Source: an uncultured Bordetella sp.
Lineage (GTDB): Bacteria > Pseudomonadota > Gammaproteobacteria > Burkholderiales > Burkholderiaceae_C
Reading direction: 5' to 3'
NCBI GenBank assembly: GCA_964442645.1
Contig: CAYTZZ010000010.1
Location: forward strand, 12,638-76,637
DNA length: 64,000 nucleotides
The translations under genes were made by a program, and so were the position numbers. The notes under the pieces were generated by a model. It saw only the letters and a program-made list of their open reading frames with translations, did not search any database and was not told where the DNA came from. This document shows, one piece after another, positions 35,450 through 39,797 of the stretch (position 1 is the first letter of the stretch; each line of letters begins with the position of its first letter).

Positions 35450-38362
35450 TCAGCTCAGGTGCTTGCCGATGATGCCGGCCAGCTCAAACATCGTCACCTG
35501 GTCCTTGCCAAACACGTCCTTGAGCTTGGCGTCGGCATTGATGGCGCGCTTGTTGGCGGCGTCTTGCAGGCCCTGGGCCTTGATGTAGTCCCACAGTTTC
35601 TTGATCACCTCGGTGCGGGCCACGGCGTCAGCGCCAATGACCGCTGCCAACGCGGGGCTGGGCGTCAGGCCGGCTGAAGGCGCGCGCGGCTTTTTCTCCC
35701 GCACGGGCTTGGCTGTTTTCGCGCTGGCTTTGGTCGCTTTCTTGGCGGCTGTTTTGCCGGCGGCGGGCGCCTTGGCGGCTGCGCCTGCTGCGGTTTTGCG
35801 CGGCGGGTACTTGCTGGTGCGCGGCTCAAACTGAAACGACACTTTGCCGGCCTCGGGATCCCACGCCAAAAAGGCCTTGAAGGCGCGGCGGGTGCGCATG
35901 CTGACAAACTTGTCTAGCAAATCGGTTTTGCCGGTTTCCAGCAGCTTGCGCATCTGCTCGGGCGCCACCGGCTGCTGCAGGATGATCTTGCCGCTCTTGA
36001 AATCGCAACTAGCGGTGGCTTGCGCCAGCGTTGGCACCGCTTTTTCACAGACATAGTTGCTGCCATGCTCACGCACGCTGGCGCCGCATTTGGGGCACTT
36101 GCCCAGCGCTTCGCTGGCGCTGAAGTCGATCAACTCGCCGGTTTCCTCGGCATTCTTGTCATCGCCAAAGTCGAATTCGAGCTTCCAGTTCTGCTCTTCC
36201 TCATTGAACTTCAGCGCAATTTCGGCGGTGAACGGCCAGCCCGCCTTGGAGCGGAAGCCTTCCAACGGGCCAATTTTCTTGTGGGCCAGAAACTCTTCCA
36301 CTTCGGCCTGCTCGAACGCACGGCCGGCCGGGGTTTTGCCGAACGAGAAGCCGCAGCCCTCGCCCTGGCCATCCGCGCCTGCACAGGCGTAGCGGCGGTA
36401 GTTTTCTTTCACCTGGCCGCCGCACTTGGGACAAGGCGTGTGCAGCGTGACGTAGTCACCTGGCACGGTGTCGCGGTCATACTCTTTCGCCTTTTTGACG
36501 ATGCGCTCGGTCATGGCGGCGATTTCGCGCATGAAGGCCTCGCGGCTGAGCTTGCCCTGCTCCATCAGCGCCAGCTTGTGTTCCCACTCGCCGGTCAGGG
36601 CAGGTTTGGACAGTTCCTCCACGCCCAGGCCGCGCAGCAAGGTCATGAGCTGAAAGGCCTTGGCCGTGGGAATCATCTCGCGGCCGTCGCGCAGCATGTA
36701 TTTCTCGTTCAACAGGCCTTCAATGATGGCCGCTCGCGTGGCGGGGGTGCCCAAGCCTTTTTCCTGCATGGCTTCGCGCAGCTCATCGTCTTCCACCAGC
36801 TTGCCGGCGCCTTCCATGGCGCCCAGCAAGGTGGCTTCGGTGTAACGCGCGGGCGGGCGGGTTTTCAAGGCCTTGGGGGTGACCGACTCGGTCAAGGCCA
36901 ACTCGCCCGGCTGAACGGCGACCAGCACCTTGCCGGATTCATCGTCGTCTTGTGCCTCTTTGCCGTAAATGGCCAGCCAGCCCGGCTTGACCAAGACCTT
37001 GCCATCGGTGCGGAAATGGTGCTTTGCGCCTTGGTGGGCAACCTGGCTGATGCGGGTGGTCACCTGGTATTCCGCCGAGGGGAAGAACACGGCCATGAAG
37101 CGGCGCACCACCAGGTCATACAGCTTTTGCTCGGCCTCGGACAAACCGCTGGGCGCCTGCAGTGTTGGGATGATGGCAAAGTGATCGCTGACTTTGGCGT
37201 TGTCGAACACCCGCTTGGAGGGCCGGATGTAGTCGTTGTTCAAGGCGGTCAACGCGAACGGCGCGAGGTGGCGCAAGCCACTGTCGGCCAACATCTCGAA
37301 GGTTTGCCGCACGGTCGGCAAGTAGTCTTCCGGCAGGTGGCGCGAGTCGGTACGCGGGTAGGTCAGGGCTTTGTGCCGCTCGTACAGGCTCTGCGCCAAG
37401 GCCAGCGTGGTCTTGGCCGAAAAGCCAAAACGCCCGTTGGCCTCACGCTGCAAAGAGGTCAGGTCAAACAGGCCGGGGGCGGCCTGGGTGGTGGGTTTGC
37501 TTTCTTCGGTGACCGTGGCAGGCTGACCGCGCGCGGCGTCGGCGATCGCCTGCGCTTCGGCTTGCGACCACACGCGGTCGGCTTTCTTTTCAGCGTCGTT
37601 CTCGTCTTTTTGGTGGCTCGGGTTGATCCACTTGCCCGCGTATTCACCGGCTGCAACCTGGAAATTGGCGTGAATTTCCCAGTAGTCGCGGCTGATGAAT
37701 TTGCGAATTTGCTCCTCGCGCTCGACCACCACACTCAGCGTGGGGGTCTGCACCCGACCCACGGTGGTCAGGAAAAAGCCGCCGTCACGGGAGTTGAAGG
37801 CGGTGAAAGCGCGGGTGCCGTTGATGCCCACCAGCCAATCGGCCTCGGAGCGGCTGCGGGCGGCGTCGGCCAGGCCCTGCATCTGCTTTTCGGTGCGCAA
37901 GGCGTCAAAGCCATCGCGGATGGCCTGCGGGGTCATGGACTGCAGCCACAGGCGTTTGACCGGCTTGTCGATGGGTTTCTTGCCGCCCGCGTATTGTTCG
38001 ATCAGTCGAAAGATCAGCTCCCCCTCGCGGCCCGCGTCACAGGCATTGATCAGCGCCGTGACGTCCTTGCGCTTGACCTGCTTGACCACCGCATTCAAGC
38101 GGGACTTGGTTTTGTCCACCGGCTTGAGGTCAAAAAAGGGCGGGATCACCGGCAAATGGGCAAAGCTCCACTTGCCACGTTTCACGTCGTAAGCCTCGGG
38201 CGCCTGAATTTCCACCAAGTGACCCACCGCGCTGGTCACGACATAGCTGTCATTTTCGAAATGGTCTTCATGCTTTTCAAATTTGCCGGCCACAGGTGTG
38301 AGCGCCCGGACGATGTCCTGCGCAACCGATGGCTTCTCAGCGATGACCAGTGTCTTGCTCAT
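35450..38362 (-). CDS. topB: Type IA DNA topoisomerase III with C-terminal zinc-ribbon-like repeats, Lys/Ala-rich linker and SWIB domain
   Basis: IAEKPSVA, NACDAGREGELIF, VGRVQTPTL, active-site TYPRTDS, GLGTPATRA. C-terminal LTPSPALAAVIG...RTEVIKKLWDYIKAQGLQD...FELAGIIGKHL is a SWIB/MDM2 fold. Confidence 0.93.
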   Translation of the reverse strand: MSKTLVIAEKPSVAQDIVRALTPVAGKFEKHEDHFENDSYVVTSAVGHLVEIQAPEAYDVKRGKWSFAHLPVIPPFFDLKPVDKTKSRLNAVVKQVKRKDVTALINACDAGREGELIFRLIEQYAGGKKPIDKPVKRLWLQSMTPQAIRDGFDALRTEKQMQGLADAARSRSEADWLVGINGTRAFTAFNSRDGGFFLTTVGRVQTPTLSVVVEREEQIRKFISRDYWEIHANFQVAAGEYAGKWINPSHQKDENDAEKKADRVWSQAEAQAIADAARGQPATVTEESKPTTQAAPGLFDLTSLQREANGRFGFSAKTTLALAQSLYERHKALTYPRTDSRHLPEDYLPTVRQTFEMLADSGLRHLAPFALTALNNDYIRPSKRVFDNAKVSDHFAIIPTLQAPSGLSEAEQKLYDLVVRRFMAVFFPSAEYQVTTRISQVAHQGAKHHFRTDGKVLVKPGWLAIYGKEAQDDDESGKVLVAVQPGELALTESVTPKALKTRPPARYTEATLLGAMEGAGKLVEDDELREAMQEKGLGTPATRAAIIEGLLNEKYMLRDGREMIPTAKAFQLMTLLRGLGVEELSKPALTGEWEHKLALMEQGKLSREAFMREIAAMTERIVKKAKEYDRDTVPGDYVTLHTPCPKCGGQVKENYRRYACAGADGQGEGCGFSFGKTPAGRAFEQAEVEEFLAHKKIGPLEGFRSKAGWPFTAEIALKFNEEEQNWKLEFDFGDDKNAEETGELIDFSASEALGKCPKCGASVREHGSNYVCEKAVPTLAQATASCDFKSGKIILQQPVAPEQMRKLLETGKTDLLDKFVSMRTRRAFKAFLAWDPEAGKVSFQFEPRTSKYPPRKTAAGAAAKAPAAGKTAAKKATKASAKTAKPVREKKPRAPSAGLTPSPALAAVIGADAVARTEVIKKLWDYIKAQGLQDAANKRAINADAKLKDVFGKDQVTMFELAGIIGKHLS

Positions 38363-38413
38363 GCGTATGCATTCCTTGTTTCTTGCCAAATGTACCAACT
38401 GTCGCAAGCCCTT

Positions 38414-38443
38414 TTGAAATCAGCCCCGACCTGCTTCTACAAT
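38414..38443 (+). promoter_or_regulatory. Candidate sigma70 promoter for SET-birA
   Basis: TTGAAA-18 nt-TACAAT, 58 nt upstream of the SET start. Confidence 0.5.
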
Positions 38444-38451
38444 CTGCTTCT

Positions 38452-38480
38452 CGCGCGCGCACGCGCACGTGTGTACGTAT
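38452..38480. repeat. 29-bp perfect alternating pyrimidine-purine tract (Z-DNA-prone)
   Basis: CGCGCGCGCACGCGCACGTGTGTACGTAT in the topB/SET intergenic region. Confidence 0.85.
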
Positions 38481-38501
38481 TCAACTTAACAGAGTTTTCA
38501 C

Positions 38502-38975
38502 GTGGCTTCAAAATCCCCTGCTTCCCATCGCCGAATTCAGACCCGCCGCTCCGGCGTCCATGGCAAGGGGGTGTTTGCCGTGGCGCCCATTGCCGAGGGC
38601 GAGACCATCATCGAATACGTGGGCGAAATCATCACGTGGAAAGAAGCGCAACGGCGCCATCCGCATGACCCGAAAGACCCCAACCACACGTTTTACTTCC
38701 ACATCGATGAAGACCGTGTGATTGACGCACTGCACGGGGGCAACTCCTCGCGCTGGATCAACCACTCATGCAATCCGAACTGTGAGGCCGACGAACAGGC
38801 AGGCCGCGTCTTTATCAAGGCGCTGCGCAACATTGCCGCGGGGGAGGAACTGAGCTACGACTACGGGCTGATCATTGACGAGCGCTACACCCCCAAACTC
38901 AAAGCCGAATACCCCTGCTGGTGTGGCGCCCCAAAATGCAGAGGCACCTTGCTGGCCCCCAAACGCGGCCGCTGA
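38502..38975 (+). CDS. SET-domain protein lysine methyltransferase
   Basis: GVHGKGVFA, RWINHSCNPN, ELSYDY and post-SET CWCGAPKCRG. GTG start. Confidence 0.92.
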   Translation: MASKSPASHRRIQTRRSGVHGKGVFAVAPIAEGETIIEYVGEIITWKEAQRRHPHDPKDPNHTFYFHIDEDRVIDALHGGNSSRWINHSCNPNCEADEQAGRVFIKALRNIAAGEELSYDYGLIIDERYTPKLKAEYPCWCGAPKCRGTLLAPKRGR

Positions 38976-38981
38976 TTGCCC

Positions 38982-39797
38982 ATGCACTGGCCTGCAGAAG
39001 ACCTCTGGCTGGCGATTGCGCCCCAGGTGCCAGGCTTCTCGGTCGAGGTGCTGCCCACGATTGACTCGACCAACACCGAATTGATGCGGCGGGCCCGGGC
39101 GGGCCAGACCGACCCCGTCCTGCTGGTGGCCGAGCAGCAAACCGCAGGTCGCGGGCGCCTGGGTCGCCCATGGCAAAGCCAGGCCGGTGACTCGCTCACT
39201 TTTTCTCTGGGCATGCACCTGGCGCCGGCCGACTGGTCGGGCTTGTCCTTGGCCATTGGCTGGGCAATCACCCATGCCCTGGACCCCGAGCAGCAACTGG
39301 GCCTGGGCTTGAAATGGCCCAATGACCTGTGGGTGATGGGCGCTTCATCTGCGGGACCGCGCAAGCTGGCAGGTATCTTGGTGGAAACAGCCACAACCGC
39401 GCTGGGGCCTACAAGCCCCACCCCAGCGCGATATTGCGTCATGGGGGTGGGCATCAACCTGAAGGCGCCCGCCGCCACCGACAACCCGGTTCCGCCCATT
39501 GGCCTGCTGGAACTGGACGCCCGATGGACGCCCGCCAGCGCGCTCCAGCGTTTGGCACAGCCCCTGGTGGAGACCGTGCTGGCGTTTGAACGCCAGGGCT
39601 TTGCACCGTTTCAAGCGTCGTTCCATGCGCGCGATGTGTTGCGGGGCCAGGCGGTCACGCTCTCCGATGGCCAGCAAGGTGTGGCCCAAGGCGTGAATGC
39701 CAAAGGTGAATTGTTGTTGGCGCAGGGTGAACGCTTGGTCAAAGTGAACAGCTCCGAAGTCAGTGTGCGCCCCAGCGCTCGGAGGGCCGAGGGATGA
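38982..39797 (+). CDS. birA: Biotin--[acetyl-CoA-carboxylase] ligase (no N-terminal HTH)
   Basis: IDSTN, AEQQTAGRGRLGR, KWPNDL, KLAGILVE, GVGINL. Confidence 0.92.
   Translation: MHWPAEDLWLAIAPQVPGFSVEVLPTIDSTNTELMRRARAGQTDPVLLVAEQQTAGRGRLGRPWQSQAGDSLTFSLGMHLAPADWSGLSLAIGWAITHALDPEQQLGLGLKWPNDLWVMGASSAGPRKLAGILVETATTALGPTSPTPARYCVMGVGINLKAPAATDNPVPPIGLLELDARWTPASALQRLAQPLVETVLAFERQGFAPFQASFHARDVLRGQAVTLSDGQQGVAQGVNAKGELLLAQGERLVKVNSSEVSVRPSARRAEG

Follow-up and report, generated by a model that had tools for sequence, protein, structure and literature searches.

A conserved alternating pyrimidine-purine tract between the topB and SET genes of Comamonadaceae as a candidate Z-DNA switch

Engineered (CG)n and (CA)n inserts have reportedly been used in E. 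coli as in vivo probes of supercoiling, in work attributed to Peck and Wang in 1983 and 1985 and to Rahmouni and Wells in 1989. Whether Z-DNA plays any part in bacterial gene regulation has been an open question for decades, one addressed almost wholly with engineered inserts and with genome-wide motif counts. Here we describe a natural tract of 29 bp that alternates perfectly between pyrimidines and purines (Y/R), a Z-DNA-prone element. It lies in a 64,000-nucleotide stretch of DNA (the window, from contig CAYTZZ010000010.1 of an uncultured Bordetella sp.), between a topB-like topoisomerase III gene and a SET-domain methyltransferase gene that are arranged head-to-head (Table 1). Like the engineered inserts, and like the eukaryotic promoter flipons that are also among its closest known comparisons, the tract is an uninterrupted alternation of CG, CA and TG steps, 29 bp long here and up to 61 bp in relatives. 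As with the inserts, its predicted onset of Z formation is near the range reached by transcription-driven supercoiling, and it would lie behind divergently moving polymerases. Unlike the inserts, it is natural, unique in its genome, under family-wide purifying selection, and placed between the predicted facing promoters of specific genes; Z formation is in this case a prediction. A literature search found no paper on the topB/SET tract locus.

Several other known systems resemble this one in part. The Halobacterium bop promoter is said to carry a short alternating "RY box". To judge by the title of the report, as it stands in the reference list of PMC1447603, that promoter is stimulated by DNA supercoiling and a non-B-DNA structure (Yang et al. 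1996 J Bacteriol 178:840). The bop promoter is thus a prokaryotic promoter with an adjoining alternating purine-pyrimidine element linked to supercoiling sensitivity, as may be the case here, but it is archaeal, its element is much shorter and upstream of the start, it is a single promoter, and it is not known to be under family-wide selection on alternation. The topA promoter is stimulated by supercoiling; topoisomerase III is mainly a decatenase, not an enzyme of supercoiling homeostasis, and is not known to act in such a homeostatic role. Relaxation-stimulated transcription is the subject of an entry on gyrA and gyrB listed in PMC3184054 (Menzel & Gellert 1983). Our locus is like gyrA/gyrB and topA in being a topoisomerase gene whose control region holds a putative supercoiling-responsive DNA feature, and unlike them in that their promoters sense supercoiling by melting of the -10 and discriminator rather than by a Z-prone tract. 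In coliphage 186 the pR and pL promoters reportedly lie face-to-face and show transcriptional interference, as Callen, Shearwin and Egan are said to have described in 2004. Here too transcription is predicted to run from two starts towards each other across a few tens of bp; the gap in the window is ~27 bp, so that the footprints of the two polymerases would overlap; unlike in 186, the genes are chromosomal and of housekeeping type, the DNA between the starts is Z-prone, and the starts are predicted only. Finally, hifA and hifB of Haemophilus influenzae are reported, by van Ham et al. in 1993, to have overlapping divergent promoters controlled by a (TA)n repeat. A dinucleotide-type tract common to two oppositely oriented promoters is what the two cases share. 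The hifA/hifB repeat is pure, sits between -35 and -10 and is hypervariable, whereas the window tract is mixed, sits downstream of both predicted -10 elements and changes at a lower rate than neutral sites do.

We regard the tract as a strong candidate for a natural Z-DNA switch in bacteria. The best explanation overall, to which we assign a probability of roughly 0.5, is that it is a DNA element selected for its alternation, set between facing promoters and flipping from the B to the Z form. A fuller proposal would have it as a natural bacterial "flipon", kept alternating by purifying selection across the Comamonadaceae, which flips under the supercoils of divergent transcription and gates the promoters of the topoisomerase III-SWIB gene and of a SET-birA operon, and which would be the first evolutionarily supported Z-DNA gene-regulatory device in bacteria; we hold this tentatively, at slightly less than an even chance. 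The locus offers a natural, genome-unique test case, in which sequence evolution points to selection for alternation as such. It sits at a topoisomerase gene, genera that can be cultured carry it (Ramlibacter, Curvibacter, Acidovorax, Limnohabitans, Hydrogenophaga), it has relatives lacking the tract that can serve as natural controls, and it bears on the co-regulation of eukaryote-like SWIB and SET genes in these bacteria.

A first-pass annotation of the window had described an unbroken 29-bp Y/R alternation beginning 8 nt past the TACAAT of the SET promoter and 89 nt from the topB start codon, and both the alternation and the distances are confirmed. The run ends on each side in a Y-Y step (T,C at 38451/38452 and T,T at 38480/38481) and contains 8 CG, 2 CA, 2 TG and 2 TA steps. 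That annotation had noticed nothing comparable in other intergenic regions, and the statement can be extended to the whole genome, beyond intergenic DNA: in 3,257,032 bp this is the longest maximal alternating run, and the runner-up has 22 bp. The numbers of maximal runs of 12 to 22 bp are 319, 125, 73, 48, 22, 8, 4, 4, 3, 1 and 1. Because the counts roughly halve with each added base, we expect by extrapolation ~0.01 runs of at least 29 bp per genome. TRF reports no tandem repeat at the tract. An identical 16-mer, CGCGCGCGCACGCGCA, occurs at contig C7:75790; its flanks are unlike those of the tract, and we treat it as a coincidence rather than as a second copy. Whether the next-longest runs are coding was looked at with a stop-free-frame test, which does not discriminate in such a GC-rich genome, where a shadow frame "covers" the tract as well.

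The alternation is conserved far beyond this genome. In the window's genus together with the named genera discussed below, we find ~120 distinct topB/SET spacers with an alternating CG/CA/TG tract at the equivalent place. The letters and the length of the tract vary between orthologous spacers; the longest perfect runs are of 10-61 bp, some tracts being unbroken throughout and others consisting of blocks with a few phase breaks. Within the genus, a DNA search finds the topB/SET locus in 22 of 24 species, with the head-to-head order maintained. Among the first 23 genus genomes, 19 of the 22 distinct spacers (the window's included) have an alternating run of 26-61 bp at the equivalent place, for instance 61 bp in L003, 43 bp in L013 and 37 bp in L002. 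A pattern search for at least 26 alternating bases matches 40 of 61 genus genomes; wherever the matches are listed they stack at a single place, which in each case fetched proved to be the topB/SET spacer; G060, treated further on, has long runs at two other places.

Searching named genomes with the SET protein yields 80 loci. In each of them topB is head-to-head with SET, directly or across a single small gene, and the record titles are those of Ramlibacter, Rhodoferax, Curvibacter, Limnohabitans, Polaromonas, Acidovorax, Giesbergeria, Hydrogenophaga, Melaminivora and Xylophilus. Nearly all of them have the same layout: TACAAT, then ~8 nt that usually include CTCGCG, then a GC-rich alternating tract, then a conserved right flank. 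Tracts come in two styles. Perfect ones are runs of 29-47 bp ending in ...TGTGCATAT-TCAACTTAACAGAGTTTT, and interrupted ones, found mainly in Rhodoferax, are alternating blocks of 10-28 bp split by GG, CC or CAGG and ending in ...GCGCCCATACGAGTTCACCATACCAAATTTTT. A genome with the tract usually has no other long run of alternation: five named genomes of 2.9-6.8 Mb each have just one or two runs of at least 24 bp, the topB/SET run being the longest in all five. Two additional genera of the family carry the tract (L145, L148). The comparison also took in 16 SET-upstream and 20 topB-upstream regions from other families of the order; their alternating runs reach 12 bp at most, and SET and topB are not head-to-head there. 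The comparison that the first-pass annotation had proposed, of alternation as opposed to exact sequence in orthologous spacers, thus comes out for alternation across a bacterial family.

What carries the case for selection is the kind of change that the tract accepts. Alternating steps make up a mean fraction of 0.86 in 111 distinct tract cores, compared with 0.52 in the genome at large. We compared substitutions in groups of species with tracts of equal length, aligned without gaps, with those at 4-fold degenerate sites of SET and of the TopB N-terminus in the same species. The tracts show 21 transitions and 3 transversions over 266 columns, the 4-fold sites 222 transitions and 229 transversions at 801 sites (Fisher p = 2e-4 for the transition/transversion contrast). 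Per column, transversions are ~25-fold rarer in the tract (0.011 vs. 0.286) and transitions ~3.5-fold rarer, and change overall is ~6-fold slower than at the 4-fold sites, a pattern which argues that the tract is constrained as a whole and far more strongly against changes that break the alternation. Between the window and a 95%-identical relative there are 3 differences in the 7 nt next to the tract but none within it, and a 27-nt tract common to nine species has only 2 variable columns. Perfect tracts have odd lengths that differ by multiples of 2, not of 3, and so the tract is non-coding. Taken as a whole, the comparative evidence argues that the tract is real, functional and selected for the alternation itself.

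Two other accounts of this behaviour were tried and rejected. A phase-variable contingency locus does not fit a tract with no TRF repeat, identical in the 95%-identical relative, nearly invariant in nine species, and slower to change than 4-fold sites. A role for 5-methylcytosine, as a stabilizer of Z-DNA or as the source of the transition bias, is contradicted by a genome with no PF00145 cytosine-5 methylase, the same search giving matches in control genomes. As for composition, CG is the commonest step in 52 distinct perfect tracts (386 of 834), and TG steps cluster at the topB-proximal end.

If alternation over at least ~12 bp, rich in CG and in CA/TG, is taken as the mark of a Z-DNA-forming tract, this one extends it to 29 bp. 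Its energetics were gauged with a rough two-state model that uses approximate Z-Hunt-type dinucleotide energies, charges each junction 5 kcal/mol and 0.4 turn of unwinding, and assumes a domain of 10 kb. In this model the B-Z onset of the tract comes at a superhelical density of ~-0.036, the least negative in the genome. The first-pass annotation had suggested ranking the tract genome-wide by Z propensity: it comes first by onset and by free energy at -0.04, but second at -0.05 and third at -0.06. For the cores of relatives the model gives a median onset of -0.036 if perfect and -0.038 if interrupted, so that interrupted tracts are still rated as Z-prone. A search for a Z-alpha domain gave no match, and a control that was likewise silent makes this uninformative.

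The geometry of the promoters differs from the first reading of this locus. On the SET side, the -10 hexamer TACAAT is nearly invariant, its T, A, A, A and T being present in 100% of 88 distinct spacers and its C in 97%; SET transcription is predicted to start near 38450 and to proceed rightward. On the other side of the tract, on the minus strand, there is a conserved TGnTAnnnT, located 3 nt past perfect tracts and ~13 nt past interrupted ones, and scored in 107 of 119 distinct tract-bearing spacers; the remaining 12 escaped the scoring window, the motif lying further to the right in most of them. Its TG, TA and final T are constant and its three middle positions vary, but the search fixed those five bases, and the evidence is therefore the presence of the motif at a constant position and not its 100% frequencies. 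The pattern suggests an extended -10 promoter, a sigma-70 element, from which topB transcription is predicted to run leftward, with a start near 38476 that falls within the tract at its right end. A weak -35-like TTGAAG upstream of it is not conserved in relatives; a -35 element is dispensable for extended -10 promoters. In spacers of only 85-90 bp, the SET -10 is within 16 nt of the topB start codon and there is therefore no room for a topB promoter elsewhere. This, together with the conserved minus-strand motif to the right of the tract, suggests a facing pair of promoters, one for SET and one for topB, with transcripts that would overlap at their 5' ends over the tract. The first-pass annotation had placed the tract in a divergent promoter; a back-to-back arrangement is not borne out. 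Its notion of a supercoiling sensor, a B-Z switch that would give homeostatic feedback on topB and SET expression, survives in part: the conserved alternation and the Z-prone rank speak for it, and the promoter arrangement on which it was built does not.

The mechanism that we propose goes as follows. The SET promoter (TACAAT) would fire to the right from ~38450 and the topB promoter (minus-strand TGTTAAGTT) to the left from ~38476, with the tract filling the space between them. Once both polymerases have departed, the tract would lie behind both of them, where the negative supercoils generated by transcription gather. It would then flip from B- to Z-DNA, taking up ~5-6 turns, and the flip would alter the first 30 bp that each polymerase has to open and copy into RNA. 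Local superhelical stress would in this way bear on initiation or escape at the two promoters. A B-Z flip is most likely the mechanism, and we infer both Z-DNA formation in vivo and an effect on expression, an effect whose direction cannot be derived from the sequence.

A number of observations weigh against this proposal. Ten species of the window's genus have the gene order intact but no tract, and the tract is missing from one Curvibacter genome (L109) as well; it is therefore dispensable. In a gene tree of the TopB N-terminus and SET its absence from L109 is clearly a nested loss; for the genus this tree, unrooted and poorly resolved, does not decide between an ancestral state and a loss. 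Many Rhodoferax-type tracts carry several phase breaks (GG, CC, CAGG). The lead of the tract over other sites of the genome in the Z model is narrow and depends on the parameters, which are approximate. Unconstrained superhelicity in E. coli is usually estimated at ~-0.025 to -0.03; because the modeled onset of ~-0.036 is beyond it, a flip would need local stress driven by transcription. On the SET-sense strand of the 52 perfect tracts there are 237 CA against 137 TG steps, which a purely double-strand property does not predict, and this strand bias is fully accounted for by none of the explanations that we have considered. Finally, in RNA stems too transitions are better tolerated than transversions, by way of G-U pairs, and the substitution bias taken alone is compatible with a role in RNA. 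A coupling of tract loss to loss of the SWIB domain was also considered, and rejected: in the tract-less genus species checked, the TopB-SWIB fusion is intact in 5 of 5, with open frames of ~970-1010 aa.

The alternative that survives best is a role in RNA. The tract would act as RNA, as a GC-rich 5'-terminal stem-loop in the topB leader, the SET leader or both, stabilizing the mRNA or controlling translation, with the alternation kept because it makes the sequence largely self-complementary in every register. Both predicted starts abut the tract, which would then make up the first ~27 nt of both mRNAs, and the lack of a Shine-Dalgarno sequence before SET means that its leader may matter. The antisense reading (G/U-rich, topB-sense) folds more stably than the sense reading (in L003, -47.1 vs. 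-27.5 kcal/mol), which fits the excess of CA over TG, and RNAalifold on 16 perfect tracts in topB-sense finds a central hairpin of 8 pairs, the only structure that it reports, in which one-sided wobble changes preserve the pairs. Yet none of the 8 pairs shows a compensatory double change, and the hairpin spans only ~20 of 30-37 nt while the whole tract alternates, the would-be loop included. Compared with shuffles that preserve alternation and composition, the 52 distinct perfect tracts do not fold any better (mean z +0.32 in SET-sense and +0.30 in topB-sense, 0 of 52 below -2), and in the sense reading complete pairing is impossible for long CA-rich tracts such as that of L003, which has 13 CA and 2 TG steps. 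RNAalifold reports no consensus structure for 24 interrupted cores, and an Rfam scan of 38300-38620 with E-values up to 10 gives no match. On these grounds we rejected a structured 5' leader with a conserved fold, and we consider a role of the tract as RNA, in its broader form, to be unlikely. A cruciform or DNA hairpin under optimization was rejected as well, the tract being no more stable than alternation-preserving or dinucleotide shuffles; folded as single-stranded DNA, the window tract has z = -0.3 against the latter.

A second alternative keeps the alternation as a requirement of the DNA but not for Z formation: a protein that recognizes the shape or flexibility of alternating DNA would bind or act preferentially at the tract, with TopB itself (autoregulation), gyrase or a nucleoid protein as candidates. 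Such a reader would explain selection on alternation rather than on letters, and the tract does occur only where topB and SET are head-to-head. In addition, some tract-less relatives have at the tract position short, AT-richer palindromes, TGAACGTGTTCA in L021 and TTATTAC...GTGATAA in L023, L058 and L059, which look like a protein operator in place of the alternating tract and suggest that the position is a regulatory slot. Against this, no candidate reader protein has been identified, a defined protein site would not usually vary in length as the tract does, from ~21 to 61 bp within the genus and up to 90 nt when broken tracts are included, and sequence-specific operators normally conserve letters. 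For the tract itself, a palindromic operator for a transcription factor was rejected, as letters and length vary and self-complementarity is no greater than in alternating shuffles. We find the protein-site explanation even harder to favor than the one based on RNA.

Less probable again, and to be given little weight, is that only the spacing or the antisense overlap of the facing promoters matters, through transcriptional interference or through pairing of the complementary 5' ends, the alternation being a by-product of dinucleotide or hexanucleotide slippage from an alternating seed. The steps of 2 in which length differs among species are what slippage would leave, and some tracts (L003, G060) resemble reiterations of CGCGCA or CGCACA. 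In tract-less clades, moreover, the two facing -10-like hexamers persist with ~26 nt of ordinary, non-alternating sequence between them, e.g. TAAAAT...CATTTTGACA. But slippage does not explain why transversions are nearly absent, and the invariance among close relatives and the silence of TRF are not those of a hypervariable repeat. That the tract is a chance or neutral oddity without function is hardly credible, even with its dispensability in some lineages, given the ~0.01 runs of this length expected per genome, comparable runs at the equivalent locus in many genera, and the ~6-fold slowdown relative to 4-fold sites, all of which contradict it.

Table 1. Features of the topB/SET locus in window coordinates; promoter elements are predictions.
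Feature	Coordinates	Strand	Details
Perfect Y/R alternation, 29 bp, Z-DNA-prone element	38452..38480	none	CGCGCGCGCACGCGCACGTGTGTACGTAT
Predicted SET promoter, TTGAAA-18 nt-TACAAT	38414..38443	+	consensus scan 10/12; -10 at 38438-38443
Predicted topB extended -10, TGTTAAGTT (TG-n-TAnnnT)	38483..38491	-	conserved motif position
Weak -35-like TTGAAG	38506..38511	-	17 nt 5' of predicted topB -10; within SET codons 2-4
topB-like topoisomerase III gene	35450..38362	-	970 aa counted from ATG at 38362
topB Shine-Dalgarno AAGGAA	38372..38377	-	sequence reading; 9 nt 5' of ATG
SET-domain methyltransferase gene	38502..38975	+	Pfam SET 1.1e-25; GTG start
Biotin protein ligase (birA-like) gene	38976..39797	+	Pfam BPL_LplA_LipB and BPL_C

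The region of the window from 35450 to 39797 thus holds a topoisomerase III-SWIB gene head-to-head with a SET methyltransferase gene, which is followed by a gene for a biotin protein ligase; the topB/SET spacer is of 139 bp. The topB-like product, with N-terminus MSKTLVIAEKPS, matches Pfam Topoisom_bac (5.9e-110), Toprim_Crpt and Toprim, and has a C-terminal SWIB domain (1.3e-25). The birA-like gene begins at the base right after the SET stop and is probably co-transcribed with SET. An in-frame TAA at 38487-38489 precedes the GTG start of SET, and in relatives the equivalent position also has a GTG or a TTG. By reading of the window sequence there is no clear Shine-Dalgarno ahead of this start. 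It is preceded by a conserved T-run, AGAGTTTT or AAATTTTT (38481-38504 in the window, and the orthologous positions), and this block, which carries the predicted topB -10 on its opposite strand, may have a dual function.

Some observations made along the way concern alternating DNA elsewhere and the assemblies themselves. In one genus genome, G060, there are two other long alternating arrays, both true tandem repeats: a (CGCGCA)n of 47 bp (L063, G060:C136:3535-3581) and, where a contig ends, a (CATGCA)n of 58 bp (L064, G060:C55:1-58). The G060 assembly, which is 71% complete, yielded no topB/SET locus. In two draft assemblies (G044:C5 and C34; G058:C265) contigs break at the tract or within a few dozen bases of it, and this may reflect poor coverage of GC-rich alternating DNA or heterogeneity in length.

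Gene arrangement varies around the locus. Other families of the order often have both SET and topB on one contig, in a different arrangement: the two genes are convergent in G030, G132 and G183, and 6-8 kb of DNA separate them in G087, G193 and G181. Some Ramlibacter and Polaromonas loci (L065, L073, L094, L099, L134) have an extra gene of 170-219 aa between the tract and topB, on the topB strand, whose product has a signal-peptide-like N-terminus and a WASWCPFC motif and looks like a TlpA-type thioredoxin. In L070, L074, L075 and L085, apparently only a remnant of the 3' end of this gene is left.
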